IMG/VR virus record: IMGVR_UViG_2690316210_000016
Span: 1 to 13,035 of that record
Strand: one strand, 5' to 3'
Length of the DNA: 13,035 nucleotides
Source: a virus
Lineage: Duplodnaviria; Heunggongvirae; Uroviricota; Caudoviricetes
Part shown: positions 1 through 13,035 of the stretch, piece after piece
Position numbering within the stretch: the stretch's first letter is position 1
Layout of the letters: each line of letters begins with the position of its first letter
The notes under the pieces: model-generated
Databases searched by the model: none
What the model saw: the letters and a program-made list of their open reading frames with translations, nothing else
Told to the model about the DNA's origin: nothing
Program-made: the position numbers and the translations under genes

Positions 1-1230
1 ATGAGCAGAGCACTTAACAAACTGAGCGATACACAGCTGAGGAAAATCAACGGCACACCCGCCCAAAAAACAGCTTTTCTTAATGACGGTGGAAACCTGA
101 GCGTCAGGCATTCAACCAGCGGCCTTTTAACCTGGTATTTCACCTACAGGGCCGGAACGGGAAGGGGAGCACGACCGGAACGGATTAAGCTGGGAAATTA
201 TCCTGATCTGAGTCTGAAAGCTGCCAGGGAAAAAGCGGCACAGTGTCGCGCTTGGCTTGCTGAGGGGAAAAATCCACGTCATGAGATGAATTACACCGTA
301 CAGAAAGCGTTAAAGCCCGTAACGGTTGGCGATGCGCTTACCTACTGGCTTGAGTCTTACGTAAAGGAAAACCGCGTGGATTATGCCGCCCTGAAAAAGC
401 GCCTTAATAATCACGTAATACAGCACATTGGTGCTATGCCGCTGGATAAATGCGAGCTACGGCACTGGCTGGCCTGTTTTGACCAGGTGGCAAAGCGAAC
501 GCCTGTTACTGCCGGATTCTTGCTACAGACGTGCAAACAGGCGCTTAAGTTCTGCCGGAGGCGGCGCTATGCAATCAGCAACGTTCTTGATGATATGAGT
601 GTGGCGGACGTTGGGAAAAAACCGGATATAAGCGAGCGTGTCTTAAGCACCAAAGAACTTGGCGAATTATTGCAGGCACTGGACAAAAAAATATTTTCCC
701 CTTACTACGTCGCACTAATCCGCCTCCTGATTGTTTTCGGATGCCGGACGGTAGAACTGAGGTTATCGGAGATCAGCGAGTGGGATTTTACCGAAATGCT
801 CTGGACCGTGCCGAAAGAACACAGCAAAACGAAGGTGGCAATATTCCGGCCCATACCGGAAGCAATACTGCCGTTCGTCACGCAGCTGGTGGAGCAGAAC
901 AGGCACACGGGCTTATTGCTGGGGGAAGTGAAACAGGAAACAAGCGTGTCGCAGTACGGCAGATTAGCGCACAGGAGGCTAAAACACCCTCACTGGTCAC
1001 TGCATGACATCCGGCGCACCTTTACAACGATGCTGAACGATTTAGGCGTGGATCCTCACGTCGTGGAGCAGCTTACAGGTCATCAGATGCCAGGGATGCA
1101 ACGAGTCTATAACCATTCCCGTTATCTGGATGCGAAACGTGACGCGCTGGATATGTGGACGGAGCGGTTAGGGATACTGGCGGGAACACATGAAAACGTA
1201 ACCACATTGCCAATAGCCAGAGAAATATAA
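1..1230 (+). CDS. int: Tyrosine site-specific integrase (phage integrase family), 409 aa
   Basis: Full ORF from ATG at position 1. C-terminal region has the catalytic-domain pattern (HDIRRTF...GHQMPGMQRVYNHSRY, i.e. His/Arg box and a tyrosine near the end). N-terminal part resembles the arm-binding domain of P4-type integrases. Family assignment is from memory, no search run. Confidence 0.88.
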   Translation: MSRALNKLSDTQLRKINGTPAQKTAFLNDGGNLSVRHSTSGLLTWYFTYRAGTGRGARPERIKLGNYPDLSLKAAREKAAQCRAWLAEGKNPRHEMNYTVQKALKPVTVGDALTYWLESYVKENRVDYAALKKRLNNHVIQHIGAMPLDKCELRHWLACFDQVAKRTPVTAGFLLQTCKQALKFCRRRRYAISNVLDDMSVADVGKKPDISERVLSTKELGELLQALDKKIFSPYYVALIRLLIVFGCRTVELRLSEISEWDFTEMLWTVPKEHSKTKVAIFRPIPEAILPFVTQLVEQNRHTGLLLGEVKQETSVSQYGRLAHRRLKHPHWSLHDIRRTFTTMLNDLGVDPHVVEQLTGHQMPGMQRVYNHSRYLDAKRDALDMWTERLGILAGTHENVTTLPIAREI

Positions 1231-1260
1231 TTTTTTTTGCGATTTTTCAGGATGCGGACA

Positions 1261-1315
1261 ACGTGAAACAACGAGACACAACGACGAACAACAAGGAACA
1301 AAATGGAACAACGGG
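1261..1315. repeat. Five tandem ~10-11 bp GAACAAC-type repeats between int and alpA
   Basis: Direct reading: tgaaacaacga / gacacaacgac / gaacaacaag / gaacaaaatg / gaacaacggg, at roughly one helical turn spacing. A second CA-rich repetitive stretch (gacacaatcc gacacaaccc aacccaataatccaccc) lies at about 1513..1565. Confidence 0.4.
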
Positions 1316-1595
1316 TTAAAAATCAGCCATCGTAATAACCATTTGATTTTTATAGGTGTACTGTTTTTTTATACACTGGCGAATCACTCTTAAAAATATG
1401 TAAAAAAGGCGTAAAAGTAAAATTTTATGCCTTTGCATCATAATGAATTAAAAGAGTTTTTATTCTCATTCCCCCTGCTTCTGTAAAACGACCGCCGCCA
1501 GTGTTTGCCATTCCACAAACACCCTGACACAATCCGACACAACCCAACCCAATAATCCACCCAATGACTCTTTAAGAAACAACAAAGGGGGAATT

Positions 1596-1784
1596 GTGTT
1601 AAGCACAGATCGCTTTATACGTGAAAAAGAATGTCAGCAACTTACAGGCCTGAGCCGCTCATGTCGGTACCGCCTGGAAAAAGCCGGACAATTCCCATCA
1701 CGGCGTAAGCTGGGCGGTCGTTCCGTTGGCTGGTCTTTATCCGAAGTTCTGGCATGGAAGGACAGCTGCGAGGCAGTTCACTAA
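1596..1784 (+). CDS. alpA: AlpA-family small DNA-binding regulator / excisionase-like protein, 62 aa
   Basis: GTG start at 1596 preceded by aaaggggg. Translation (FIREKECQQLTGLSRSCRYRLEKAGQFPSRRKLGGRSVGWSLSEVLAWK) matches the AlpA/CP4-57 regulator HTH pattern. Its position just after int is typical of satellites and integrative elements. Confidence 0.8.
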   Translation: MLSTDRFIREKECQQLTGLSRSCRYRLEKAGQFPSRRKLGGRSVGWSLSEVLAWKDSCEAVH

Positions 1785-1836
1785 TCAGGCTGGCGGCACA
1801 CAGCCGCCACCCATCCACTAATACAGAGATCTAACC

Positions 1837-3261
1837 ATGAATACTGGATATTCTCCCGAACAAGGGCGGGGCTTCGTTCGTCCTGAAAAACAGAATCTGC
1901 AAAATTTTGCCGAAATTATTCCGGTTATTTCCGGCCTTACTGGCGGGAGTGAAACCAATATTGTTAACGCCAGAGCGTTGCAGATGTTTGATGATAAAAA
2001 GGGAGTAAATTTAACTTACACCCCTGACGGCAATCAGAATATGAGCATTATCTCTGAGTCAGGTTTCTACAAACTAATAAAAACAAAAAGCGCCCCGTTG
2101 CCGGAGCGCCTTTGTGAACAATTAACCTACTGCGCAAAAAATGAATCTGAGCAGTGGGATTATATCAACCATGTGGAGAAGCGCCACAATTGCCGAATAA
2201 CGGGCAAAACAAAGGCCACCCGCTACGGTGGCCCCTCGACACAAGCTACACGTTATCCCCAACGCATGAGCATTGCCAACAATGCCACATTTGCGGCTGG
2301 TGGGCAATGCAATCAGTCTGGTTCAGTTCGTTGCCATACCTGCAATGAGCGCTTTTCCCTGTACTCTTTAAGGAATTGCTCAAGGGCAAAAGCACATGGC
2401 GCGAATCTTTCTGATTCATGCTCTATCTTTCTGCGCCGTCTTTTCCGTGCCGGTGATAATGTTTTGGTCAATTCTTTATCGGTCATTGTGTTGTCCTGCA
2501 TAGCAATGCGCCGTAATACCTTACACCACGGCGCTGATGGTGATTACTCTGGTTCTTTGGTCTTGCGGCGCTGGAGTTCTTCACGTGCGACAGTGACGAG
2601 CTGCCCGATCTCCTCGGCGGCTTTGATTCCGAGTTTTTCCACCTGCGCCAGTGCATCGAGCGAAGAAACCAGGGGATTTTCTCCACTTCCTTCTGCCTGG
2701 CGCCGGGCGATCTCACCGCGTACAGCCGTAACTATAAAATTCGCTTTAGTTTCCCCTGGCTGTAGGGATGCCTCAATGCCACTCACTACTTCATGTGGAA
2801 ATCTGGCATTCAGTTGCTGTGACTTATTGTTAACAGAACTCCTGGACATGTTTGCACCTCCCATTAATAACGGGATGCAGTGTAATACAAAAGTGAATAC
2901 CAAAAAAGACTTGAAATGGTATTCACCTAAATGTAATGTGAATACCACAAGTGCTGATACATGCAATTCAGCAATTGAAACGACGAAGCCCCGCACTGTT
3001 GGAGCAGTAACGGGGCTTCTAACCACCAACGATAACGAGAGTATCGAGGTAGCTATGAGAAATCATACCACACACCCGCAAGGGCGGGACTCGCACAACC
3101 TGAATAAATACATCTGGCGTTTTATCGCCCTGAGCACTGCACAACCGCGCGTGATTACCATTGAGGCCACCAGCGAACAGGAAGCACGCCAGCAATCCCC
3201 GGCTGGCTGCGTGATGGTATTCGCTGCCCGTATTCGTCAGGAGGTGTGCCATGTGCAATAA
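1837..3261 (+). CDS. Questionable 474-codon ORF; only the first ~90 codons look protein-like (antirepressor / Bro-N-like segment)
   Basis: Residues ~50-85 (MFDDKKGVNLTYTPDGNQNMSIISESGFYKLIKTKSA) resemble the C-terminal half of a Bro-N/antirepressor domain, but the N-terminal half does not match well. From about nt 2150 onward the translation is Cys/Ser/Arg/Thr-rich and looks non-coding. The ORF also runs antisense through a well-supported minus-strand gene (2544..2849) and through a repeat-rich regulatory region. Probably a gene remnant plus a chance open frame. Confidence 0.25.
   Translation: MNTGYSPEQGRGFVRPEKQNLQNFAEIIPVISGLTGGSETNIVNARALQMFDDKKGVNLTYTPDGNQNMSIISESGFYKLIKTKSAPLPERLCEQLTYCAKNESEQWDYINHVEKRHNCRITGKTKATRYGGPSTQATRYPQRMSIANNATFAAGGQCNQSGSVRCHTCNERFSLYSLRNCSRAKAHGANLSDSCSIFLRRLFRAGDNVLVNSLSVIVLSCIAMRRNTLHHGADGDYSGSLVLRRWSSSRATVTSCPISSAALIPSFSTCASASSEETRGFSPLPSAWRRAISPRTAVTIKFALVSPGCRDASMPLTTSCGNLAFSCCDLLLTELLDMFAPPINNGMQCNTKVNTKKDLKWYSPKCNVNTTSADTCNSAIETTKPRTVGAVTGLLTTNDNESIEVAMRNHTTHPQGRDSHNLNKYIWRFIALSTAQPRVITIEATSEQEARQQSPAGCVMVFAARIRQEVCHVQ
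2544..2849 (-). CDS. Hypothetical small protein (102 aa), possible island regulator
   Basis: Minus-strand ATG (complement of cat at 2847..2849) sits 6 nt after a strong Shine-Dalgarno (GGGAGGTG on the minus strand). The longer upstream extension in the ORF track (to 3029) is hydrophobic junk, so the internal start is preferred. It faces away from the replication operon across operator-like repeats. No family recognised. Confidence 0.45.
   Translation of the reverse strand: MSRSSVNNKSQQLNARFPHEVVSGIEASLQPGETKANFIVTAVRGEIARRQAEGSGENPLVSSLDALAQVEKLGIKAAEEIGQLVTVAREELQRRKTKEPE
2881..3019. promoter_or_regulatory. Operator-like repeats (GTGAATACC direct and inverted) and a 9-bp-stem hairpin in the divergent intergenic region
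   Basis: GTGAATACC at 2893..2901 and 2938..2946, its inverse GGTATTCAC at 2918..2926; TGTAAT at 2881 and 2932. Hairpin GAAGCCCCG (2985..2993) / CGGGGCTTC (3011..3019) with no downstream T-tract. Lies between the minus-strand gene and the plus-strand operon starting at 3251. Confidence 0.35.
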
Positions 3262-3475
3262 CACCCGTCCGGACGCAGCCGCCGAAGCCATCATAACGCT
3301 AATGCATGCGCTGATTGATATTTCTGTTATTGCTGACAGGGCGCATAAACACGCAGTCAGAGAATCAGAATGCATCTTCCATTATTTAGCATTTGTGCAG
3401 CTAAAAGCCGATCAGGCACTGGATAAGGCCGGAAAAATTATCATGGCTGATGTGCAGGAGGTGCACCATGCATAA
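3251..3475 (+). CDS. Hypothetical protein, 74 aa
   Basis: ATG at 3251 preceded by AGGAGG (caggaggtgtgccATG). Its stop overlaps the start of the next ORF (atgcataa), indicating translational coupling. Confidence 0.55.
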   Translation: MCNNTRPDAAAEAIITLMHALIDISVIADRAHKHAVRESECIFHYLAFVQLKADQALDKAGKIIMADVQEVHHA

Positions 3476-3833
3476 CCTGTCAATTTCTGACCTTAACAGC
3501 ATTCAGTTTGACGAGAAATTTACCGGGCAGTTGCTGGTCAATGTGGAGAACGGGCGCATAGTGCGTAATTATCACCTGCCGGATGGTGCAATTGCCGGAA
3601 GCGTTGAAGCATTGCTGGAACTGGCGGAACGTGCGCGACTGATTAAGCCGTCAACGAGCCATCACGATGATGATCTGCATTTTACCGGATGTATGGTGAG
3701 TCACTACGAAAACGGCGTCGAGGTATCCTGCGAACGGCTGCGTGATGATTGCTGTTTCGGCACACTGCCGGAATTTATCGAGTTGCTGACCAGTTGCGGT
3801 TATCAGGTCATTCAGGGGGGTAAACATGCGTGA
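3468..3833 (+). CDS. Hypothetical protein, 121 aa
   Basis: ATG at 3468 preceded by AGGAGG (caggaggtgcaccATG). The ORF-track start at 3450 would place the SD inside the coding sequence, so 3468 is preferred. No recognisable domain. Confidence 0.55.
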   Translation: MHNLSISDLNSIQFDEKFTGQLLVNVENGRIVRNYHLPDGAIAGSVEALLELAERARLIKPSTSHHDDDLHFTGCMVSHYENGVEVSCERLRDDCCFGTLPEFIELLTSCGYQVIQGGKHA

Positions 3834-4059
3834 TGATCGTTTTAATTCCCTGAAACAGGAATTTTCCGGCGTTCCTGATGATGCGGCTGATGCGCTTTCG
3901 TCAATGCCAGAACTTATTAGAGCGGCTTTTTTCTTACTTTCCACGAGAGAATATAAATCAACGGGGCTTGATGTACTGAATATCGCCGCCGATTATGCGG
4001 AATATGTGGCAGAGGCGCGTTACAGAAGAAAATTTCCTGAGGATGTAAGCCATGCGTGA
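3826..4059 (+). CDS. Hypothetical protein, 77 aa
   Basis: ATG at 3826 after a GGGGGG run; start overlaps the previous stop. Acidic small protein, no family recognised. Confidence 0.5.
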   Translation: MRDDRFNSLKQEFSGVPDDAADALSSMPELIRAAFFLLSTREYKSTGLDVLNIAADYAEYVAEARYRRKFPEDVSHA

Positions 4060-4285
4060 TATTTACCACGAAACAATAGACCGCGCATTTCTTGCACTTT
4101 CTCACAGTGAAAACATGCTGGAAATATTGCGCATATGGCTTGAAACACTTGGCGACAATGAACGCGACAAACAAAAATCAAGAATTGCCACGGCATTAAT
4201 AACGCTTCTTGAGCCTGTAATAATGGAACTGCAAGAAATAGATCTATTGCACGACAGATATAAAGAACAGCACACCGGAGAATAA
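4052..4285 (+). CDS. Hypothetical protein, 77 aa
   Basis: ATG at 4052 after GAGGA; overlaps the previous stop. No family recognised. Confidence 0.5.
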   Translation: MRDIYHETIDRAFLALSHSENMLEILRIWLETLGDNERDKQKSRIATALITLLEPVIMELQEIDLLHDRYKEQHTGE

Positions 4286-4290
4286 AAATA

Positions 4291-4590
4291 ATGAAACTTA
4301 AATATTCTGGCTTAACTGCCAGTGGCAACACTCACCCTAAATTTACGCGCGGTGATATTTACCGCGACCAGTACGGCGGCACGGTAATGATTAAGGGCGT
4401 GGAAGAACGGCGTGTAACCTACCGCCGTGAAGGTTACGAATATGATTGCGTGATGCCTGTTTATCAGTTCCGGCGTGATTTTTCTCTGGTGCAGACCGCG
4501 CCGCATAACGTGCCCACCAGCAACGCCAGGGCACGGGCAAACATCCAGAAGCTGAAAACCATGATTAACGGATTCAGGGGTAAAAAATGA
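4291..4590 (+). CDS. Hypothetical protein, 99 aa
   Basis: ATG at 4291 after GGAGA; its stop overlaps the primase start (ATGA). No family recognised. Confidence 0.5.
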   Translation: MKLKYSGLTASGNTHPKFTRGDIYRDQYGGTVMIKGVEERRVTYRREGYEYDCVMPVYQFRRDFSLVQTAPHNVPTSNARARANIQKLKTMINGFRGKK

Positions 4591-6341
4591 AACTGGCACC
4601 GAACGTAAAACAGCAGTCACGCGGCATAAAACACAAAGGAACAGAAGTCATTATTTTTGCGGGTAGTGATGCCTGGGCACACGCGAAACAATGGCAGGAA
4701 CATGATGCGCGTATGGCCGGAGATAATGAGCCTCCTGTGTGGCTTGGGGAGCAGCAGTTATCAGAACTGGATAAGCTGCAAATTGTGCCGGAAGGCAGAA
4801 AATCCGTGCGCATATTCAGGGCCGGATATCTTGCGCCAGTAATGATAAAGGCGATTGGCCAGAAGCTGGCGGCGGCAGGCGTACAGGATGCAAATTTTTA
4901 CCCTGATGGTATGCACGGTCAGAAGGTGGAGAACTGGCGCGAATATCTGGCCCGTGAGCGCCAGAATCTTTCTGATGGTCTGGTCATTGAGCTTCCGGTA
5001 AAGCAAAAGGCGCAACTTTCGCAGATGGCGGACAGTGAGCGCGCGCAGCTGCTTGCCGATCGCTTTGATGGCGTTTGCGTACATCCTGAAAGTGAAATCG
5101 TTCACGTATGGCGCGGCGGGGTATGGTGTCCGGTCAGCACAATGGAACTTAGCCGCGAAATGGTGGCGATCTATTCAGAGCACAGGGCCACTTTCAGCAA
5201 GCGCGTAATCAATAACGCCGTGGAAGCGTTAAAAGTTATTGCCGAACCAATGGGCGAGCCGTCCGGCGATTTGCTGCCGTTCGCCAATGGTGCGCTTGAC
5301 CTGAAAACGGGGGAATTTTCCCCGCACACGCCGGAGAACTGGATCACCACGCACAACGGCATTGAGTACACGCCACCAGCACCCGGGGAGAACATCCGCG
5401 ATAACGCGCCAAACTTTCATAAATGGCTTGAGCACGCAGCCGGAAAAGACCCGCGCAAGATGATGCGTATATGTGCCGCGCTGTACATGATTATGGCGAA
5501 CCGGTACGACTGGCAGATGTTTATTGAGGCCACCGGAGACGGCGGGAGCGGTAAAAGTACATTCACACACATAGCCAGCCTTCTGGCAGGGAAACAAAAC
5601 ACGGTAAGCGCTGAAATGACATCGCTTGATGATGCTGGTGGGCGTGCGCAGGTTGTCGAGAGTCGTCTTATCGTCCTGGCTGACCAGCCGAAATATACAG
5701 GCGAAGGAACGGGCATCAAGAAAATCACGGGCGGCGACCCCGTGGAAATTAACCCGAAATATGAAAAGCGTTTCACGGCGGTAATCAGGGCGGTGGTGCT
5801 GGCGACCAACAACAACCCGATGATATTCACCGAACGGGCCGGAGGTGTGGCACGTCGTCGCGTGATTTTCCGTTTCGACAATATCGTCAGTGAGGCCGAA
5901 AAAGACAGGGAGCTACCGGAAAAGATTGCGGCTGAAATCCCTGTGATTATCCGCCGATTGCTGGCGAACTTTTCCGACCCTGAAAAGGCACGGGCTTTAC
6001 TCATTGAACAGCGTGACGGTGATGAAGCACTGGCGATAAAGCAGCAAACGGATCCGGTTATTGAGTTTTGCCAGTTCCTGAATTTTCTGGAGGAAGCGCG
6101 CGGCCTGATGATGGGTGGCGGTGGCGATTCAGTGAAGTACACGACCAGGAACAGCCTTTACCGCGTCTATCTGGCGTTTATGGCATACGCAGGCAGGAGC
6201 AAACCGCTAAACGTAAATGACTTTGGCAAGGCTATGAAGCCTGCCGCAAAAGTTTACGGACATGAATATATTACGCGGAAAGTTAAGGGGGTAACGCAGA
6301 CTAACGCAATAACAACAGACGAGTGCGACGCGTTTTTATAA
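4587..6341 (+). CDS. Replication initiator: P4-type primase C-terminal / SF3 helicase (D5-like NTPase) protein, 584 aa
   Basis: Walker A P-loop EATGDGGSGKSTF (nt ~5534..5557) followed by a Walker-B-like hydrophobic stretch ending in D (RLIVLADQ). Overall resemblance to the P4-alpha / PICI pri-rep NTPase domain, and an iteron array lies directly downstream. Family from memory, no search run. Confidence 0.82.
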   Translation: MKLAPNVKQQSRGIKHKGTEVIIFAGSDAWAHAKQWQEHDARMAGDNEPPVWLGEQQLSELDKLQIVPEGRKSVRIFRAGYLAPVMIKAIGQKLAAAGVQDANFYPDGMHGQKVENWREYLARERQNLSDGLVIELPVKQKAQLSQMADSERAQLLADRFDGVCVHPESEIVHVWRGGVWCPVSTMELSREMVAIYSEHRATFSKRVINNAVEALKVIAEPMGEPSGDLLPFANGALDLKTGEFSPHTPENWITTHNGIEYTPPAPGENIRDNAPNFHKWLEHAAGKDPRKMMRICAALYMIMANRYDWQMFIEATGDGGSGKSTFTHIASLLAGKQNTVSAEMTSLDDAGGRAQVVESRLIVLADQPKYTGEGTGIKKITGGDPVEINPKYEKRFTAVIRAVVLATNNNPMIFTERAGGVARRRVIFRFDNIVSEAEKDRELPEKIAAEIPVIIRRLLANFSDPEKARALLIEQRDGDEALAIKQQTDPVIEFCQFLNFLEEARGLMMGGGGDSVKYTTRNSLYRVYLAFMAYAGRSKPLNVNDFGKAMKPAAKVYGHEYITRKVKGVTQTNAITTDECDAFL

Positions 6342-6356
6342 TTTTTTGTAATTGCT

Positions 6357-6580
6357 GTCTACCCTGTCTACCTGAGTAAAGAAAAATACATTTAATTCAG
6401 TGCATTAAGTTAGGTAGATAGCCTTTTTTTACTGTCTACCCACTATCTACCCTCTCTACCTGATTTTACCTGAATCAGACAGGGAGGTAGACACGGGGTA
6501 GATAGTGGATAAAAGCACTCTACCCCGCTGAAATCCGCGCCATTACTGGCATGAGGGCCACTAAGGTAGATAAGGTAGAC
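6357..6580. repeat. Iteron array, putative replication origin
   Basis: About 11 copies of the heptamer GTCTACC / GGTAGA(C/T) within 225 bp. Mostly GTCTACC-type in the left cluster (6357, 6366, 6434, 6445, 6454) and GGTAGAC/T-type in the right cluster (6486, 6497, 6565, 6574), with one GGTAGAT at 6413 and one CTCTACC at 6518. An AT-rich stretch (6374..6412) lies inside the left cluster. Confidence 0.7.
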
Positions 6581-6629
6581 AAGGGGAGGCACAACTCAAA
6601 ACTTTTTAAACGAGGGGGTAAAAATAAAT

Positions 6630-6908
6630 ATGCACACTTCAGGGAAATTTAATAAATCACTCAAAAAACGCAGAGACAGAACAGAACCGAAATATCGCGC
6701 GTTAGACATGACAGAGCACGCTTTAAAGGTGGCAATCAGAACGATAGACCGACACGTAGGGGAAGGATACGCGAAGGAACATCCCGACCTGATAAGCGCA
6801 TTCATGACCACAGCAGCGGCAAACTTTGCCACGCTGACAGAACGGGAGATTGCCGAAGCGGAACAGGTAACAACCATCAACGTTAAAACCGGAGAGGTGG
6901 AATCATGA
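6630..6908 (+). CDS. Hypothetical protein, 92 aa
   Basis: ATG at 6630 preceded by GAGGGGG; its stop overlaps the start of the SSB-like gene (ATGA). No family recognised. Confidence 0.5.
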   Translation: MHTSGKFNKSLKKRRDRTEPKYRALDMTEHALKVAIRTIDRHVGEGYAKEHPDLISAFMTTAAANFATLTEREIAEAEQVTTINVKTGEVES

Positions 6909-7315
6909 CAGCACAGATAGCAGCTTACGGGCGGCTGGTGGACGACCCGCAGGTAAAACAGACCAGCAAGGGCACACCAATGACGCTGGCACGTATGGCG
7001 GTATCGTTGCCATGTAGTCAGGCGCAGGATGGGCAGGCTACGTTATGGCTATCGGTGATGGCATTTGGTAAGCAGGCCGACTTCCTGGCTAAACATCAAA
7101 AAGGCGACGTTGCCAGCGTATCCGGCACGATGCAGGTCAGCCAGTGGACCGGACAGAACGGGGAAACGCGGCAGGGTTATCAGGTTATTGCAGACAGCGT
7201 AATCAGTGCCCGTGCGGCACGTCCTGGCGGGAACAGACGCAAAACCACAGGCACACAGGGTAATCAGCCACCAGCGGGAGGCGATGACCCTTACGGTGAT
7301 GATATTCCGTTCTGA
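6905..7315 (+). CDS. ssb: Single-stranded DNA-binding protein homolog (short, 136 aa)
   Basis: OB-fold-like N-terminal region, a Gly/Pro/Gln-rich linker, and a C-terminal acidic tip GDDIPF that corresponds to the conserved DDDIPF tail of bacterial SSB. Confidence 0.78.
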   Translation: MTAQIAAYGRLVDDPQVKQTSKGTPMTLARMAVSLPCSQAQDGQATLWLSVMAFGKQADFLAKHQKGDVASVSGTMQVSQWTGQNGETRQGYQVIADSVISARAARPGGNRRKTTGTQGNQPPAGGDDPYGDDIPF

Positions 7316-7325
7316 GGGGGTGAGG

Positions 7326-7574
7326 ATGGTACATGACCGCATAGCGGAGGAACTCGAGGCAAAAGGCTTTTACCGGAGGGCGGCGGCACGATGGGGTGAA
7401 GTCATGCAACTGGTGGAGACAGACAAGGAACGGCATCAGGTTACGATGCGACGGCTGGAATGTTCCAGGAAGGCACAGAGGCCACCGGAGCCGCCAACGG
7501 AGAACTATGCAGACCTGAGAAATGCAGTAAATCGCACTTACGCAGACATGGGGCTGAGCAAATTAGCAGAGTAG
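7326..7574 (+). CDS. PerC/Pch-family-like small transcriptional activator, 82 aa
   Basis: ATG at 7326 after GGGGG, in frame with the ORF-track entry 7206..7574, whose upstream part overlaps ssb and is probably not translated. The motif IAEELEAKGFYRRAAARWGEVM resembles the conserved N-terminal motif of PerC/Pch regulators as I recall it. Confidence 0.5.
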   Translation: MVHDRIAEELEAKGFYRRAAARWGEVMQLVETDKERHQVTMRRLECSRKAQRPPEPPTENYADLRNAVNRTYADMGLSKLAE

Positions 7575-7597
7575 GAATACCAGAACCACACCACACA

Positions 7598-7619
7598 GCC
7601 GGAGCAATCCGGCTTTTTT
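7598..7619 (+). terminator. Rho-independent terminator
   Basis: GCCGGA-GCAA-TCCGGC hairpin followed by TTTTTT. Confidence 0.6.
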
Positions 7620-7631
7620 GCGCCCAAAAAA

Positions 7632-7668
7632 AGCCCGATAAGGTCAGAGGTGGCTTATCGGGCTTTTG
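7632..7668. terminator. Second hairpin terminator, probably bidirectional
   Basis: Perfect 11-bp stem AGCCCGATAAG / CTTATCGGGCT with an 11-nt loop, flanked by an A-run upstream and TTTT downstream. Confidence 0.6.
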
Positions 7669-7744
7669 CATATGAGGTTTTTTGGTGCACTGACACACAT
7701 GATCGGGATAATCATTTCATAATTTGCAACGCAACTCAATATCA

Positions 7745-7797
7745 TTGCACAAAATGCAATCATGATTATAATCATAACTGGATGAACATCCAGTTAT
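7745..7797 (+). promoter_or_regulatory. Sigma70-type promoter of the capsid module overlapped by two perfect palindromic operators
   Basis: TTGCAC (7745..7750), 16-bp spacer, TATAAT (7767..7772). Perfect 14-bp palindrome ATGATTATAATCAT (7762..7775) overlaps the -10. Perfect 24-bp palindrome ATAACTGGATG-AA-CATCCAGTTAT (7774..7797) covers the predicted transcription start. Confidence 0.55.
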
Positions 7798-7828
7798 GAT
7801 TTTTTAAGTCAAAGAGGAATTTCTTACT

Positions 7829-8035
7829 ATGGCTGAAGAGAAAAAAGGCGGTGTTTCGGTGTACATAAGCCCCGACATCGTGAAGGCGCTCAAGGAACGC
7901 CACCAGCAGAACGTAAAAGCAGGCATTGCGGCAGGACTTGATCCGCTGGCGATGGTTGAGCCGTCAACAGGCTGGCAGGTACGCGCCTATTTACGCGCGG
8001 CGCTGGGTATGAATCAGGTTCACGGGGGTGAATAA
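7829..8035 (+). CDS. Hypothetical protein, 68 aa, first gene of the capsid module
   Basis: ATG at 7829 after AAGAGGA; stop overlaps the capsid gene start (TAATG). No family recognised. Confidence 0.55.
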   Translation: MAEEKKGGVSVYISPDIVKALKERHQQNVKAGIAAGLDPLAMVEPSTGWQVRAYLRAALGMNQVHGGE

Positions 8036-9090
8036 TGACAGTAAAAGCAATGGCACTTAACACTAACCAGCTTTTTGCGTACCTGAATCGCGGGGATATT
8101 GCGGAATTTAAATTCAGTCCGCTGTTTACCACGCTGTTTTTCCCGAACGTGGCGACATTCAGCACGCAAAACATCATGCTGGATACCCTGGACATTGAAG
8201 AAGTCACCATGTCGGCGTTTTGTTCGCCTATGGTGGGTAGCCAGGTTCAGCGCGATAAAGGGTACGAAACCAGCACGATTAAACCTGGCTACATGAAGCC
8301 AAAGCACGAAATCGATCCAACGAAAACCATCATGCGCATGGCTGGAGAAGATCCGGCACAGCTTAACGACCCTACCTATCGCCGTATGCGCCTGATTACT
8401 GGCAATATGCGCCGCCAGATAAACGCCATAAAAGCGCGCGTGGAATGGCTGGCGGTAAATGCGGTAACGACCGGAAAAAACATCATTGAAGGCGAAGGCA
8501 TAGAGCGCTATGAAATCGACTGGAAGATACCGGAAAAAAACATCATAGAGCAGGCCGACGGGAAAAAATGGTCAGAGCAGGACAAAGAAACCCACGATCC
8601 AATCTATGATATCGAACTATACGCCGATCAGGCTGGTTGCCCCGCAAACGTCATGATTATGGGCGCTGAGGTATGGCGAACGTTACGCAGCTTTAAAAAA
8701 TTCCGTGAGCTGTACGATCTTTCCCGTGGTTCAGAGTCCGCCGCAGAGCTGGCCTGTAAAAACCTGGGCGAAGTGGTGAGCTTTAAAGGCTATCTGGGCG
8801 ATATTGCCCTTATCGTCTATTCCGGCAAATACACTGACAGCGACGGCACAGAAAAATATTTCCTTGAGCCTGATTTGCTTGTCCTGGGCAACACCAACAA
8901 TAAAGGGCTGGTGGCCTATGGTGCGATTATGGATCAGGACGCAGTAAGAACGGGCGCAACGCAAAACATGTTTTACCCGAAAAACTGGATTGAGGACGGC
9001 GATCCGGCGATTGAGTACGTGCAGACGCACAGCGCACCGCAGCCGGTTCCGGCAGATATTCGCAAATTTGTTACCGTCAAAATTGGTTAA
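8035..9090 (+). CDS. Major capsid protein, lambda gpE-like (HK97 fold family), 351 aa
   Basis: Multiple blocks match lambda gpE as recalled: KPGYMKPKHEIDP vs TPGYVKPKHEVNP; DPTYRRMRLITGNMR vs DPAYRRRRIIMQNMR; VSFKGYLGDIALIVYSGKY vs VSYKGMYGDVAIVVYSGQY; LLVLGNTNNKGLVAYGAIMDQDA vs TMVLGNTQARGLRTYGCIQDADA; YPKNWIEDGDPAIEY vs YPKNWVTTGDPAREF. Length is similar to gpE (341 aa). Confidence 0.9.
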   Translation: MTVKAMALNTNQLFAYLNRGDIAEFKFSPLFTTLFFPNVATFSTQNIMLDTLDIEEVTMSAFCSPMVGSQVQRDKGYETSTIKPGYMKPKHEIDPTKTIMRMAGEDPAQLNDPTYRRMRLITGNMRRQINAIKARVEWLAVNAVTTGKNIIEGEGIERYEIDWKIPEKNIIEQADGKKWSEQDKETHDPIYDIELYADQAGCPANVMIMGAEVWRTLRSFKKFRELYDLSRGSESAAELACKNLGEVVSFKGYLGDIALIVYSGKYTDSDGTEKYFLEPDLLVLGNTNNKGLVAYGAIMDQDAVRTGATQNMFYPKNWIEDGDPAIEYVQTHSAPQPVPADIRKFVTVKIG

Positions 9091-9101
9091 CGGGGGATTC
9101 T

Positions 9102-9437
9102 ATGGACACTCCATACATTGAGTTATTTGCAGGCAGTCAGCAGGTCGCCACGACGCTGGTACATTTTGCCGCTGATGCTGGCGTTATTCAGGAATTTACC
9201 CCGCTGATGCTGGCGGACAATGGCGAGTTTAAGCCGTGGGATGGTAAGGAATCTGGCAAGGCTGTTTATCTGACCTCGTACCCTGTGGACACGTCAAAGC
9301 AGAAATCAGCACAGTGTTACAAGACGGGGATATTCAATATTGCCGCCGTTAACTGGCCTGAGAGCGTCGACACCGATGCGAAAAAATGCGCCGCCTTTGC
9401 GGGTTCCGGCGTATCCGTTCAGCCGCTGGCCCGATAA
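9102..9437 (+). CDS. Head decoration protein, lambda gpD-like, 111 aa
   Basis: Matches lambda gpD (110 aa) as recalled: TPLMLADNGEFKPWDG vs TPLMLDTSSRKLVAWDG; CYKTGIFNIAAVNWPESVDTDAKKCAAFAGSGVSV vs [35 protein letters not shown]. Preceded by GGGGGAT. Confidence 0.85.
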   Translation: MDTPYIELFAGSQQVATTLVHFAADAGVIQEFTPLMLADNGEFKPWDGKESGKAVYLTSYPVDTSKQKSAQCYKTGIFNIAAVNWPESVDTDAKKCAAFAGSGVSVQPLAR

Positions 9438-9449
9438 GCAGGGGGAACG

Positions 9450-9863
9450 ATGGCAACGAATGAAAGCATCATGACGCTACCGCTGGCGAGTAAATTTAAA
9501 GCCGAAGCGCGGGCAATGGCTGACAGAGGTTTATCAACCTATGAGGCCGTATATCAACTAAACAAACTGGAAGAGCAGGACAAGCCGCGCGCTGATGCGA
9601 TTATGGCGCTTCATGAGCATAAAGACTATCAGCCGCTGTTGCGTGCAATGGCAAACGTGCCTTGTATCGATGTTGGTACGGCTAAAAGCATCCTTAGCAT
9701 GACCATAGAGCAGGAACGTCCGAAGGTTGCGCCGGAACTTACCGCAGCCTTTGAAAACTTTATGGACATGCACAGCCCGCAAGCCGTATCAGCTGGCATG
9801 GCATACGATGGCAGAAACCAGGGCGATGACGGCGACATCGATCGCATACTGAAAACCATCTGA
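9450..9863 (+). CDS. Hypothetical protein, 137 aa, last gene of the capsid module
   Basis: ATG at 9450 after AGCAGGGGGAAC. No similarity to lambda FI/FII that I can recognise. Confidence 0.55.
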   Translation: MATNESIMTLPLASKFKAEARAMADRGLSTYEAVYQLNKLEEQDKPRADAIMALHEHKDYQPLLRAMANVPCIDVGTAKSILSMTIEQERPKVAPELTAAFENFMDMHSPQAVSAGMAYDGRNQGDDGDIDRILKTI

Positions 9864-9869
9864 GACAAG

Positions 9870-9891
9870 GCCGGAGAAATCCGGCTTTTTT
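9870..9891 (+). terminator. Rho-independent terminator
   Basis: GCCGGA-GAAA-TCCGGC hairpin followed by TTTTTT; nearly identical to the terminator at 7598..7619. Confidence 0.6.
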
Positions 9892-9892
9892 A

Positions 9893-9957
9893 CGGGTCCT
9901 TCCTGGAATTATGGCCCGTTACGGGGCGGCGACCTCGCGGGTTTTCGCTATTTATGA
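9893..9957 (+). other. cos site copy A: lambda-type cosQ-cosN junction with only the first ~22 bp of cosB
   Basis: Contains GTTACG-GGGCGGCGACCT-CGCGGGTTTTCGCTATTTATGA, matching the lambda end junction (12-nt cohesive end GGGCGGCGACCT at 9924..9935, recalled from the lambda genome). The preceding CGGGTCCTTCCTGG resembles the lambda right end ACGGGTCCTTTCCGG. No R-type repeats follow before the Nu1-like gene. Confidence 0.8.
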
Positions 9958-10024
9958 CGTTTTCCCGTGAAGGTGACACCACCACCACTTGATTAATATT
10001 TAACCATGCAGTTAAGGTAACATT

Positions 10025-10459
10025 ATGATTGATAAAGCTTGTTTTGTAAGTCAGCAGGAAATAGCTGAACATTTCAAGGTTAACAGAACCACTATTCGCG
10101 CATGGACCAAACAGGGGATGCCGTATCTTAATGCGGATCGCGGAAAGTCTGGCGGTTATCACATCGGGCATACATTGCTTTGGTCTTCAGGTAAAAGCCG
10201 TCTTGAGGCCATCAGATATCACGTAGAAACCAGTGCGCTGGAAAAAATTATGTTTGCCAGGCTGCTTTCATCTGAGCGTGACGAGTACTCCAGTGAAGAA
10301 ACAGAACATCGATTTGATGAAGGTTTGCAGATTTACGGCTATTCACCGGAAGATGTGAGCAAGGCACGAAATAAAATGGCTGGCTTTCTGGCTGGGTGGC
10401 GTCATGCCGTAAGCGTTCGCCGTGCCAGCATGGAGCAATCAGCCGATACAGAACAGTAA
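10025..10459 (+). CDS. Small terminase subunit homolog (lambda gpNu1-like N-terminal winged-HTH domain), 144 aa
   Basis: VSQQEIAEHFKVNRTTIRAWTKQGMPYLNADRGKSGG aligns with lambda Nu1 VNKKQLADIFGASIRTIQNWQEQGMPVLRGGGKGN. Shorter than Nu1 (181 aa), and the C-terminal half is unrelated. No large terminase subunit gene is present in the window. Confidence 0.72.
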   Translation: MIDKACFVSQQEIAEHFKVNRTTIRAWTKQGMPYLNADRGKSGGYHIGHTLLWSSGKSRLEAIRYHVETSALEKIMFARLLSSERDEYSSEETEHRFDEGLQIYGYSPEDVSKARNKMAGFLAGWRHAVSVRRASMEQSADTEQ

Positions 10460-10527
10460 AGCCGATAACTTGTTAATCACTCGCAGCAATGCATGTGATT
10501 TGTGCACACTTTCGGTTAACTGGTTCG

Positions 10528-10705
10528 ATGTCCGGTTTTAGTGTCTGTTTTTTGCGCATGTCCGGTTCATGGAAAGCATGTTTTTATATTTTTCATATGG
10601 TTAACTTGCAGAGAAACCGGACATGGATCCCGAAAAATTTTCATAAATAGTGAAAACGCGCGAGGTCGCCGCCCCGTAACGGGCCATAATTCCAGGAAGG
10701 ACCCG
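10528..10705 (-). other. cos site copy B (inverted): cosQ-cosN plus a complete cosB-like region with three R-like repeats and an AT-rich tract
   Basis: Read on the minus strand: cosQ-like at 10675..10705, cosN (AGGTCGCCGCCC on plus) at 10663..10674, then TATTTATGAAAATTTTCGGG, matching lambda TATTTATGAAAATTTTCCGG. R-like decamers ATGTCCGGTT at 10528..10537 and 10558..10567 and the inverse AACCGGACAT at 10615..10624, with an AT-rich tract at 10570..10612. This mirrors the lambda cosN-R3-I1-R2-R1 layout but with a different repeat sequence. Confidence 0.75.
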
Positions 10706-10738
10706 ACGACACCAGACTATCAGAACGATGGGGGCACA

Positions 10739-11020
10739 ATGACAGAAGCCGAAATACTGCGATTAATCCGCCGCGTTGCCGGAATCAGCCAGCAGGCCGA
10801 CGAACAGACCACGCAGCCGGACAGCGTGACCGCCGAAAATTATGTTCGTGTGGTTGCTGAGATGATTCGCCGTAATGGTATCCAGCTTAATGATGTGGAT
10901 ATGCGCAACATACGGATCCGCGTTCTTGAAATGCTGGCCTACAATCGCCGCGTGGCACTGTATCGGGAAACGGAGAAAATTACGTACCACTGGAAGAAGC
11001 CGGAGCGGTTGCGGCGGTAA
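10739..11020 (+). CDS. Hypothetical protein, 94 aa, distal to cos
   Basis: Start chosen at ATG 10739 (GGGGG upstream). The ORF-track start at 10541 would translate through cos copy B. No family recognised. Confidence 0.45.
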   Translation: MTEAEILRLIRRVAGISQQADEQTTQPDSVTAENYVRVVAEMIRRNGIQLNDVDMRNIRIRVLEMLAYNRRVALYRETEKITYHWKKPERLRR

Positions 11021-11070
11021 CTGGTTGATATTTTCGAAATTCGCCAGCGGCGAACATCGGGGAAACCAGC

Positions 11071-11187
11071 CTAACCCGTTGATATTTTCGGGAACCTCAA
11101 ATTGAGGAGGTCGGAAACATAACCCGTCATATTCTGGATGCTGATAATTACCACGCAGCCCATTAAGGCCTAACCCGTTGATTCTTC
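11071..11187. repeat. Three direct repeats of TAACCCGT(T/C)(G/A)AT at ~48-bp spacing
   Basis: ctaacccgttgatattttcg (11071), cataacccgtcatattctgg (11119), cctaacccgttgattcttcc (11168); also ttgatattttcg at 11024. Confidence 0.4.
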
Positions 11188-11193
11188 CACAAT

Positions 11194-11356
11194 CCCCCAT
11201 TGGGGGAGGCTGGGCGGCCTGCTGTGGGCTTTTCCACCATTGGTGGAAAGGCGCACATCTGGATCATCATTACGGTGATCAAGGGTATGTAAAACCCACC
11301 AGCCTGATTGACATTTAACCGGAAAAAAGCCAGGTAGCCCCATTATGGGGATCCCC
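11194..11356. repeat. Cluster of GC-rich palindromes with a CCATTGG-type core
   Basis: CCCCCA-T-TGGGGG (11194..11206), TTTCCACCA-T-TGGTGGAAA (11231..11249), CCCCAT-T-ATGGGG (11338..11350) overlapping GGGGATCCCC (11347..11356). Confidence 0.4.
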
Positions 11357-11574
11357 ATATCGACATTAACGCCCCTCATGAATTGGCGCGCTTCCCCCTG
11401 GAAAGATGACCCGCCTGTATATTTCTTGTGTCTATTTGTTCCACGTTGTTTCATACAGTGCAACGATCGGTGTAGTTAATGGTGTAGTCAATTTGCGATT
11501 TTTAGCACTTTTTGCAGTGCAAATCATTTAATTAAATCAATGACTTGCCTTGATGTAGTGATAAAAGGACATAT

Positions 11575-13035
11575 TTATTCATCTTTCGGCGCAGAATGCT
11601 GGCGACCAAAAATCACCTCCATCCGCGCACCGCCCAGCATGCTCTCTCCGGCGACGATTTTACCCTCATATTGCTCGGTGATTTCGCGGGCTACCGCCAG
11701 CCCTACACCTTGCCCAGGGCGTAAAGTATCAACCCGTTGACCACGGTCGAAAATGACCTCTCGCTTGCTTAATGGAATACCGGGGCCATCATCCTCGACC
11801 ACAATATAGAGATGCTCGTCGGTTTGCCTTGCAGAAATTTCGACAAACTCGAGGCAATATTTACAGGCATTATCCAGCACGTTGCCCATCACCTCGACAA
11901 AATCGTTCTGCTCACCGACAAAGCTGATCTCTGGCGAAATATCGAGAGAGATATTGACCCCTTTGCGTTGATACACTTTGTTCAGCGCTGAGGTGAGATT
12001 GTCCAGCAGTGGGGCGACCGGATGCAGCTCGCGGCTGAGCAATGTCCCGCCGCGCATACTGGCACGATGCAGGTAGTAGCCAATTTGCTGTGAAATGCGG
12101 CTGATTTGCTCCAGCATTACCGGCTCAGCATCACTGACGCTCATCTTTTCACTACGCAGAGAACGCAGCGTACTTTGCAGCACCGCCAGTGGCGTTTTCA
12201 GACTATGGGTCAGGTCGGTGAGCGTCGTACGGTATTTGTCGTAACGTTCGCGTTCACTTTTTAACAATCGGTTCAGGTTTCGTACCAGACTGGTCAGTTC
12301 TCGCGTTGTGGCTGGATTGAGCAATTCGCGGTTATGTTCTTCCAGTTCGCGGACTTCTTTTGCCAGGGCTTCGATGGGGCGTAAACTCCACCAGGCGGCG
12401 ACCCACAGCAGCGGGATCACTAACAGCAGATTGGCTGAGAGCACATAGATAAACCAGCTCCAGACCATATAGGAACTTTTTAGCTCCACCGGAATGGTAT
12501 CCACCACCACAATGGTTAATTTTGGCATCCGCGATGTTGCCGGGTAGACGTTTACTGCCACCGAGTGGGTCATCTCCGCGTCGTCATCATCTTCCCGCAC
12601 TTCCTGCAACTGTTGCTGTATCGAATGATCTCCACTCAGCAAGAGGCTGGTATCGTTAACATCCGCTTCAATTTCATGAAAACCATTCGATTTCAGCCAG
12701 TCAGGCTGGATCATCTTCATCAGCCAGGGCACGTCACGTTGCGCCCATAAAAGCTGCCCGTTCTCATCATAAATTAGCGTCATGGTGGGGCTTTGCTTGT
12801 CGATATTTTCGGGTAACTCGACATGCAACTTATTGTTTTCCCACTTCGCAAGGGTATAGAACAGATTGCTCTCGCCACGTAACAGCCGAAACGTAGTTTT
12901 ATCGAAACTGACGCTATAACCGATCAGCGCGACCATTCCGTAGGCAAGCGAAAGCACCAGTACTACCGCAGCCGTTGCCAACAGAAAACGTACCCGCAGC
13001 GAGAGCGGGAAAAAAAGACGCAGTAATTTTTTCAT
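11575..13035 (-). CDS. phoQ: Sensor histidine kinase PhoQ, 486 aa, complete
   Basis: Translation matches E. coli PhoQ as recalled, including the periplasmic acidic patch EDDDDAE, the H-box HSLKTPL and the C-terminal ATP-binding domain. The start codon is the last three bases of the window. Confidence 0.93.

Follow-up and report, generated by a model that had tools for sequence, protein, structure and literature searches.

The DNA analysed here, called the window below, is a stretch of 13,035 nucleotides (nts) from a virus of the class Caudoviricetes (IMG/VR record IMGVR_UViG_2690316210_000016, positions 1 to 13,035). Between an AlpA-family regulatory gene (alpA) and the genes for replication, its plus strand contains a 474-codon open reading frame (ORF), which runs through minus-strand genes, repeated operators and a hairpin and ends as a small gene of the Icd-like/Kil family, here called icd. 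Comparison with related loci (numbered L001 onwards) suggests, with somewhat more confidence than doubt, that immunity and induction of a satellite of the phage-inducible chromosomal island (PICI) type are switched within the region 1596-3475, which is organised on the plan of P4 with different immunity parts.

Composition of the alpA-icd interval

The long ORF is a composite of five parts: a Bro-N remnant, terminators, two minus-strand genes, a control region and the Icd-like gene (Table 1). The presence of the ORF, stated in an earlier sequence-only reading of this DNA, agrees with the ORF listing, which gives it an ATG start.

Table 1. Features of the region from alpA to icd, with strand and basis of assignment
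Feature	Position	Strand	Basis
Promoter-like site upstream of alpA	1505-1533	+	TTGCCA-17-CACAAT with upstream TG; promoter scan
alpA, AlpA-family regulator	1596..1784	+	Pfam Phage_AlpA E=3e-18; PGAP: helix-turn-helix regulator
474-codon "pass-through" ORF, ATG start	1837..3261	+	ORF listing; in frame with the Icd-like/Kil gene, ends as it
Bro-N (antirepressor-type) remnant	1960..2103	+	tblastn to L002 BRO-N; Pfam below cut-off; PHROG
Second (distal) intrinsic terminator of the minus-strand operon	2086..2113	-	Scan: 12-bp stem, then TGTTTTTATT
First intrinsic terminator of the minus-strand operon	2208..2239	-	GGCCACC...GGTGGCC, then UUUGUUUUG; terminator-like alignment
57-amino-acid basic protein, same operon as the repressor	2313..2486	-	PGAP coding sequence WP_000130015; phrog_21027; motif RFAxxxFxLExFLK
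YlcI/YnfO-family protein, 101 amino acids; probable ribbon-helix-helix (RHH) repressor of the internal promoter	2544..2849	-	NF041551; PGAP
Three operator copies, GTGAATACCA	2893-2902 (+), 2917-2926 (inverted), 2938-2947 (+)		Bracket and overlap the promoter hexamers
Candidate internal promoter of the icd-like operon, analogue of P4 PLE	2911..2939	+	-35 TTGAAA 2911-2916, 17-nt spacer, -10 TAATGT 2934-2939
Conserved structured RNA antisense to the icd-like 5' untranslated region, Shine-Dalgarno sequence and start codon	2972..3059	-	Covariation, strand asymmetry, fold
Parts of the antisense RNA	5' stem enclosing small hairpin 3030-3046 (loop 3035-3041); terminator hairpin 3019-2985; U-rich tail 2984-2976	-	
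Candidate extended -10 promoter of the antisense RNA	3062..3070	-	TGGTATGAT; inside icd codons 3-6; predicted start near 3055
Icd-like/Kil-family gene, 68 amino acids	3055..3261	+	NF033153 E=1.5e-19; PGAP coding sequence; own Shine-Dalgarno GAGG 3046-3049

Near the N-terminus of the ORF, the sequence-only reading saw a partial Bro-N motif and interpreted it as the remnant of an antirepressor, which the comparison supports. Codons ~42-89 show 69% identity over 51 amino acids (tblastn) to residues 57-107 of an intact 192-residue BRO-N protein. This intact gene occupies the same position in L002 and its product scores 72.4 bits with Pfam Bro-N. PHROG anti-repressor families match the N-terminal part of the ORF at E about 1e-5, while the gathering score of Pfam PF02498 is not reached by the window ORF (17.0 vs 25.6 bits, E=0.009-0.07, profile positions 34-85). 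As the L002 homologue is intact and the window copy scores below the cut-off, the latter is regarded as a remnant.

The minus-strand gene with a strong Shine-Dalgarno sequence (GGGAGGTG), also noticed earlier, encodes a protein that PGAP assigns to the YlcI/YnfO family and that NCBIfam NF041551 matches over residues 9-50 with 60.8 bits (cut-off 30). The protein is probably an RHH repressor. A profile of its relatives retrieves Arc (1b28, E=0.022) and a CopG-family protein (7ak7, E=0.16) as weak matches in the PDB, Pfam PSK_trans_fac matches below its cut-off at E=0.008, and the C-terminal half is predicted to be helical. Together with the second gene of its operon, it overlaps the long ORF in antisense over about 480 nts.

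The stretch 2150..2540, which was described as devoid of a convincing coding frame, holds this second gene (2313-2486) and the terminator at 2239-2208. The 57-amino-acid gene is conserved: it is kept in a relative at 79% DNA identity, with an in-frame indel of 6 nts, and its product is matched by phrog_21027 at E=1e-15. The second gene exists in several very divergent forms (in the window, L039, L046, L051 and L063), which share just the motif (R/K)FAxxxFxLExFLK and a basic tract. The stem of the first terminator shows compensatory changes in L002 and L003, and a homologous hairpin is called in L038. The distal hairpin (2113-2086) is also called in L025, and in some relatives it is the sole terminator, directly after alpA.

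The Icd-like gene consists of the last 68 codons of the long ORF in the same frame, and its 3' end overlaps with the beginning of the following gene (ATG at 3251). Hence the operon that was thought to start at 3251 starts with the Icd-like gene, which had been missed in the first inventory along with the 57-amino-acid gene and the terminators. NF033153 also matches P4 Kil (E=1.6e-21), and residues 161-208 of P4 Eta match the same model. A tblastn search of the Icd-like protein against a phage collection returned one record only, and P4 was not among it, so that the kinship with P4 Kil is visible only through the NCBIfam profile. PHROG families with a match to the Icd-like protein bear the name "transcriptional repressor", probably taken over from an obsolete "cI gene product" coding sequence of P4 (X51522, 8168-8584), since the immunity of P4 is at present ascribed to the CI RNA.

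The open plus-strand frame in related loci

Parts of 1837-3261 are matched in 1794 of 5426 complete E. coli genomes, while most of the region is matched in just 34-52, which indicates that it is highly mosaic. Two sets of loci were compared, 80 with an Icd of the window type and 80 with an Icd of the O157 type (46% identical). In 132 of these loci alpA lies upstream, and they represent 68 distinct types of alpA-icd interval over both sets, with 41 types in the first set.

A single plus frame spans at least 90% of the interval in 45 of the 68 types (both sets, 132 loci), and these dominant frames end at the icd stop or -27 to +13 nts from the icd ATG. In a further 18 types the frame covers 50-90% of the interval and, where inspected, an extra plus-strand gene, typically an intact Bro-N, precedes it. 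In the first set, the icd frame contains 0-1 stops in 25 of the 41 types over 448-1270 nts, against 6-28 stops in each other plus frame. In E. coli O157:H7 the icd frame is open for more than 330 codons upstream; the antisense repressor of this locus is of another kind, encoded by an Arc-like gene of 57 amino acids. In 20 of the 68 types the dominant long frame differs from that of icd, and most of these frames stop -25 to +13 nts from the icd ATG. In L059, L084 and L090, the long ORF is in frame +2 and its TAG/TAA stop lies inside the small-hairpin loop, 20 nts before the icd ATG. In these three loci a termination-reinitiation arrangement seems to replace the in-frame fusion.

The beginning of the frame is also marked in relatives. 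In many of them the long ORF begins with a strong Shine-Dalgarno sequence (e.g., TAAAGGGGAGCATATG) 10-20 nts past the alpA stop; the ORF start can also overlap that stop, and in Morganella and Proteus its start overlaps the stop codon of an intact Bro-N gene. Eight relatives share the N-terminal peptide M-K/N-x-G/E-Y-T/S-P-E-Q/R-G-R-G-F. Over the N-terminal 17 codons, however, 57 synonymous and 97 nonsynonymous codon differences were counted among relatives, and the middle of the ORF (~1000 nts) is swapped for unrelated sequence in relatives, yet remains open. Because the frame is open in mosaic relatives and the encoded sequence is not conserved, it can be inferred that the frame is under selection while its protein sequence probably is not, translation itself being the selected property.

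The sequence-only reading had considered the ORF as probably not a gene, which is not borne out, the frame staying open across divergent mosaic relatives. It had also proposed that conservation of the 474-codon frame with a synonymous bias would count against this view. The frame is kept open, and the synonymous bias is not found.

The antisense genes of the interval comprise at least 13 sequence types (repressors and second genes), which form unrelated cassettes across relatives. All credible ones lie in a single phase, in which the third codon positions of the minus and plus strands coincide. In the other genes of the window, taken as a control, the same antisense phase contains 3.5 stops per 100 codons. 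Given the proteins, random synonymous codons leave the antisense frame open with p=0.15-1.0 per gene, and the joint probability of finding no stop over the 13 gene types, conditioned on the proteins, is about 10^-5.4. For the window alone, a rough estimate of ~1e-6 is obtained for the ORF being open by chance, from the rate of 3.5 stops per 100 codons in the antisense phase and ~157 non-genic codons. The non-coding spacers, the promoter and the hairpin are likewise free of stops in the long frame. A codon-position test for the strand under protein selection in the overlap was uninformative, as both frames share third positions.

Annotation of the same DNA is in conflict, the region being given nothing, an "Icd-like pseudogene" or an "Ash family protein". 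In the O157:H7 strain 2149 (L004, 2807-3400), PGAP gives the status of a pseudogene ("Icd-like protein, missing C-terminus") to the counterpart of the long ORF and leaves the Arc-like repressor and the 57-amino-acid gene on the other strand without annotation; elsewhere the long-ORF region is labelled "ash family protein" (H59).

In a group of Pectobacterium and Dickeya remnants (L005-L009, L012, L014 and L015), no alpA was found and the long frame is broken. Where measurable, the plus frame is open for just 93 codons, and in L009 the break falls at the operators. L009, the sole locus of this group inspected in detail, retains the repressor, the operators, the antisense RNA, icd and one more ORF, and adjoins fis/dusB and a kinase/phosphatase-like gene pair.

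Operators and the predicted RNA opposite the icd start

The control spacer between the repressor gene and the Icd-like gene measures 205 nts. The direct and inverted repeats reported there earlier correspond to three exact copies of GTGAATACCA, at 2893, 2917 and 2938. With at most one mismatch the motif has 8 matches in the window against 0.83 expected, and none of 200 shuffles reaches 8. Two near-operator copies inside icd (3151-3160 and 3215-3224) are regarded as coincidental, because they are also present in loci with other operator types.

The internal promoter of the window was read by eye from the sequence, and the same layout is found in other genera. At the same place, the promoter scan calls TTGACA-17-TACTAT in L038 and TTGACA-18-TATGTT in L025 (10/12 match). 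The layout of the repeats is constant across repressor variants: a first copy precedes the -35, a second falls into the spacer and a third lies at the start of transcription. Relatives often possess a fourth repeat nearer the repressor gene, by the leftward -10. The sequence of the repeats, in contrast, follows the variant of the repressor, as seen over about 20 types; examples are GTGTTCAACAC, GTGGGCCACAC, GTGGCTGACAC, TGTGCGCACA, GTGTAAGACAC, GTGCAAGTCAC and GTGCGATTCAC, while Arc-like repressor types are accompanied by ATGGTAATTACC or GGTGTACACC. This co-variation makes the relatives look like heteroimmune repressor/operator pairs and would be in line with a YlcI/YnfO protein that binds the repeated promoter sites.

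The hairpin with a 9-bp stem (2985-2993/3011-3019), which was described earlier with no strand given, is real and contains an extra inner stem. An RNAalifold consensus of 26 distinct sequences shows a 5' stem (AGCUAC/GUGGUU) enclosing CGAUA-N7-UAUCG, followed by a two-tier terminator hairpin. The 83 nts of 3056-2974 fold with -37.6 kcal/mol on the minus strand (z = -6.70), compared with -28.6 kcal/mol on the plus strand (z = -4.05). Among 38 distinct hairpin variants, which keep the fold via compensatory changes, 37 reach the lower energy when folded as the minus strand (summed -884 vs -664 kcal/mol). In the 26-sequence alignment, the share of canonical pairing cells is 95.8% for the minus strand and drops to 79.5% when the plus strand is read; G·U pairs number 106 and 5, respectively. 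Two-sided pair changes number 10, compared with 5.4±1.2 in shuffles (0/500 reach 10) and 2-4 in slid controls. In many relatives the minus-strand stem is followed by U-rich tails (e.g., CGUUGUUUUUUG). The G·U asymmetry, the covarying pairs and the U-rich tail assign the hairpin to the minus strand, where it most likely terminates a cis-antisense RNA of ~80 nts lying over the icd ribosome-binding site.

A covariance model built from the 26 sequences scores 98.4 bits in the window and 41-97 bits in the other PICI-type loci searched. Every one of these loci has one copy antisense to the icd start, and occasionally two; P4 has no match. In L006 the antisense orientation scores 77.7 bits against 25.6 bits for the sense orientation. 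The RNA spans both the Shine-Dalgarno sequence and the ATG of icd. Its candidate promoter, TGn followed by TATGAT, TATAAT or TATTAT, is kept in all window-type variants, including those with changes that alter the Icd amino acid, and the O157-type lineage carries the related hexamers TATGAT or TATGCT.

The 7-nt loop at 3035-3041 has 10 variants in 82 loci (entropy 0.69 bits vs 0.13 bits in the rest of the leader). It varies independently of the type of terminator hairpin, in leaders that are otherwise nearly identical, which may reflect a specificity-determining kissing loop. Two modules of antisense RNA and icd leader lie ~750 nts apart in L173 (2056-2144 and 2923-3011), L161, L149, L126 and L140, matching genomes annotated with two Icd-like genes; these doubled modules may be tandem immunity units.

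No Rfam family matches the hairpin RNA. The families C4 (RF01695), c4-a1b1 (RF03163) and isrK (RF01394) are absent from the window up to E=10, whereas the same search finds them in P4 (74.9, 44.1 and 60.8 bits, respectively), and membership of the hairpin in the C4/CI/isrK group was rejected on this basis. The Rfam model of sar gives only E=5.6, on the wrong strand.

It was also considered that the hairpin could act on the plus strand, either as an attenuator or processing site of the icd leader or as a reduced C4/CI-type RNA, for example a substrate of RNase P with ACCA. Such an element would occupy the same position between promoter and icd/kil as P1 c4 and P4 CI, the stem is followed on this strand by a conserved CUAACCAC, and the plus-strand fold, too, is more stable than its shuffles. 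The failure of the Rfam models, the position of the U-rich tract on the minus side, the lower share of canonical pairs, the near absence of G·U pairs, the stability of the variants and the sense score of L006 all oppose it, and a plus-strand function is considered improbable.

Several narrower proposals were rejected. The RNase P minihelix (stem plus ACCA on the plus strand) conflicts with the G·U asymmetry. A Shine-Dalgarno mimic or a CsrA GGA-loop would require a loop motif that is not universal, the loop of L013 being CUACCCAC. A P4-like seqA/seqC pairing was suggested by the complementarity of 1863-1877 to the 5' arm of the hairpin (14/15), and it is unsupported, as the arm changes to CAACGCCCCG in L004 with no compensation at the upstream site. 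The similarity stems from N-terminal sequence shared by the long ORF and the Icd-like gene, CAAGGGCGGG(G/A)CT occurring 24 nts after both ATGs (1837 and 3055).

A candidate immunity and induction switch

The window begins with a tyrosine integrase gene (1-1230) followed by alpA. Downstream of the proposed switch, the plus-strand operon encodes a DUF4222 protein, a primase/helicase, a major capsid protein, a decoration protein and a connector, and the window ends in phoQ. The roxA-phoQ interval of E. coli 2017C-4173W12 carries a copy that is 99.9% identical to the window. This gene order is that of the Integration, Bro, Replication and Late zones of Gram-negative PICIs (PMC10111431), and the window is hence a PICI-type satellite with int, alpA, primase and capsid genes, inserted between roxA and phoQ.

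Further downstream, the window contains a 584-codon primase ORF (4587-6341), for which PGAP annotates a 1401-nt "helicase RepA family" gene in a near-identical genome (L001, 14888-16288); either the start assignment or the sequence differs between the two. Just 3' of this ORF, a stretch of low G+C content (6349-6586) contains at least 10 copies of a 9-mer of the CTGTCTACC/GGTAGACA type in both orientations. They look like iterons of the replication origin of the island. The PICI ori is placed downstream of pri in the literature.

The building blocks of the region are already known from P4 eta/kil, P1 c4-icd and P22 mnt/arc/sar. In P4 (X51522), ORF88/vis, an alpA homologue, is followed by a 214-codon ORF (8812-8168, eta) that ends as the 65-residue Kil and contains the C4-family CI RNA and an element of the isrK/c4-a1b1 type (seqA-type). 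PMC10111431, which cites Forti et al. 1999, describes a constitutive promoter inside eta and Kil as a truncated form of Eta; when eta is translated from the late promoter upstream (PLL), immunity-specific termination is prevented. The window shares with P4 an alpA-type gene followed by a long ORF; this ORF spans an immunity RNA as well as an internal promoter, and its last part is an Icd-like/Kil gene that has a start of its own. Both kil-type genes belong to NF033153. The rationale given for eta in that paper fits the conserved open frame found here. The window differs from P4 in that it lacks a match to C4/CI or seqA/isrK, and in that Phage_ASH (PF10554), found in P4 Eta at E=4.5e-23, does not match the window ORF at E up to 1. 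The ORF is also more than twice as long as eta and includes an antisense two-gene operon with a protein repressor and terminators. Finally, its RNA is encoded on the opposite strand, in cis-antisense, whereas that of P4 is part of the leader.

As proposed for the immI region of P1 and P7 (c4, icd, ant), a small RNA would block initiation of an icd-family gene that is coupled to downstream genes, and a gene of antirepressor type (Bro-N/Ant) belongs to the locus. C4 of P1, however, is a trans-type RNA (RF01695) processed from the transcript of its own target, unlike the cis-encoded RNA on the other strand of the window, where the Bro-N gene is moreover upstream and degraded.

P22 immI contains the RHH repressor genes mnt and arc, divergent promoters with short repeated operators, Pant and ant. 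Its sar RNA, a cis-antisense RNA of ~70-80 nts, lies over the ribosome-binding site of the gene downstream, with an intrinsic terminator at its end. The logic of the window is the same, with a probable RHH-type repressor, repeated operators and a putative terminator-ended cis-antisense RNA over a ribosome-binding site, but sequence kinship does not extend beyond the weak similarity to Arc (E=0.022). A long sense ORF through the repressor gene is not known from P22.

The region, with its remnants of a Bro network and its immunity functions, occupies the place of the Bro zone of Gram-negative PICIs (PMC10111431), flanked by the integration (int, alpA) and replication zones. According to the same paper, some Bro zones contain immunity RNAs of the C4/isrK type, a point in which the window differs; "ylci" and "antisense" do not occur in its text, and neither the fixed-phase overlap nor the co-variation of operator and repressor was found there. 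In the literature searched, no RHH repressor or Icd antisense RNA is described in PICIs, nor is a cis-antisense RNA family replacing C4, or an operon for a protein repressor lying antisense inside a conserved pass-through ORF in a fixed, wobble-sharing phase.

The sequence-only reading had compared the arrangement to a divergent immunity or control region, and the present analysis agrees in finding the replication operon preceded by the gene for a minus-strand protein of DNA-binding type, by a promoter with operators lying over it, and by a structured RNA. In quiescence, the minus-strand operon would produce the YlcI/YnfO repressor, which would bind the three GTGAATACCA operators and shut the rightward promoter. 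In addition, the antisense RNA, transcribed from the extended -10 within the first icd codons and ending at the 3019-2985 hairpin, would pair with any icd-like transcript that escapes, at its leader, its ribosome-binding site and its start codon, blocking translation of the Icd/Kil-type protein. The coupled genes behind icd would be blocked too, probably with Rho-dependent polarity.

AlpA is a helper-induced activator, and PICI AlpA activates downstream genes (PMC6092414). During induction, the helper phage would turn on alpA, and AlpA would boost its own promoter. Transcription from upstream of alpA would read on into the long ORF and traverse the whole region. Ribosomes loaded at 1837 would then cross the antisense genes, the operators and the target of the antisense RNA into icd and the replication operon. 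Continuous translation would shield the transcript from Rho and bypass initiation at the icd ribosome-binding site, and expression would thus escape both immunity layers. Through-transcription, being antisense to the repressor operon, should also silence it.

A more specific form of this switch has three layers: swappable cassettes of RHH repressor and operators, a new family of cis-antisense RNAs of ~80 nts, and a kilobase-long pass-through frame. This version is tentative, with slightly more doubt than confidence attached to it. In it, the apical loop of the antisense RNA may set specificity between co-resident islands, and the sole selected property of the pass-through frame would be the absence of stops, forcing recombined antisense genes into the wobble-sharing phase.

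Several points weigh against the proposed switch. Gene content, the open frame, the fixed antisense phase, the co-variation of operators and the strand, structure and covariation of the RNA come from sequence and comparison, but every step of binding, transcription, translation and termination is deduced from these, and the promoters are consensus-level predictions. The PDB matches of the repressor are weak enough (E=0.02-0.16) to leave the RHH fold unestablished, and a single-sequence AlphaFold model contains no strand and is of low confidence (predicted local distance difference test score 63.5). The repressors of the window and of L096/Pectobacterium have an identical predicted beta-strand and different repeats (GTGAATACCA vs GTGCGATTCA), so that either a different part of the protein would set the specificity, or the repeats are bound by some other factor. 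The promoter scan does not call the internal promoter of the window (-10 TAATGT, 3/6 match), nor does the terminator scan call its hairpin, which has a weaker U tail (UCGUCGUUUC). The antisense -10 overlaps conserved His-Thr codons, and protein constraint could explain its conservation. At the start of the long ORF, 53 nts separate the alpA stop (1784) from the ATG at 1837, with a weak Shine-Dalgarno sequence (GAGA). The frame is also interrupted in a few relatives (L049, L065 and L017).

The alternative that retains the most weight, although unlikely as the full explanation, is that AlpA acts as a processive antiterminator and thereby provides the read-through from alpA into replication, the long frame being irrelevant or secondary. 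According to PMC7969949 and PMC9371919, AlpA of P. aeruginosa loads onto RNA polymerase at the promoter and bypasses intrinsic terminators, and read-through could thus be obtained without translation, a further point against the switch as proposed; the activation of downstream genes by PICI AlpA agrees with this mechanism as well (PMC6092414). Antitermination leaves unexplained, however, the stop-free plus frame in more than 60 mosaic interval types, the single antisense phase and the strong ribosome-binding sites after alpA, and the scan reveals no evident plus-strand intrinsic terminator in the interval. The two mechanisms are not mutually exclusive, and antitermination by AlpA may contribute alongside translation.

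A functional fusion protein, Eta-like or made of Bro-N with an Icd-like C-terminus, whose amino-acid sequence matters, is as improbable as the plus-strand hairpin. P4 makes Eta and Kil from nested starts (PMC10111431) and its Eta has Phage_ASH; likewise, eight relatives share the N-terminal peptide, and PGAP treats the O157:H7 counterpart as a (pseudo)gene. Such a protein would, however, be translated from promoter, operator and hairpin DNA. Its central ~1000 nts are replaced in relatives while remaining open, the window lacks Phage_ASH and has only a sub-cut-off Bro-N, and in most of the 20 types in which the dominant frame is not that of icd no fusion would be made. The excess of nonsynonymous differences among the first 17 codons also speaks against it. 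Least credible of all is a chance ORF arising as a by-product of the base composition and codon usage of the antisense genes: single open genes are not very surprising at 0.15-1.0 each, but the joint probability over 13 gene types, the stops of the control genes, the stop-free spacers, promoter and hairpin, the constant phase and the 6-44 stops in each of the other two plus frames make it scarcely tenable.

The preferred reading remains the switch in which translation carries transcription through the region. Parts of it being found in 1794 of 5426 complete E. coli genomes, the switch is common in this species. The RHH-type gene with its co-varying operators and the antisense RNA are candidates for the missing negative control, and for the immunity specificity of co-resident islands. 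If the three-layer switch is true, it would supply the long-missing repressor of Gram-negative PICIs, and selection for translatability, rather than for a protein, would be imposed across two overlapping protein genes. If translation for the sake of read-through is confirmed, the long ORF would show cleanly, in a natural case, that a frame can be conserved although its protein is not, with relevance for the recognition of overlapping genes and for the control of Rho-dependent polarity in mobile elements.

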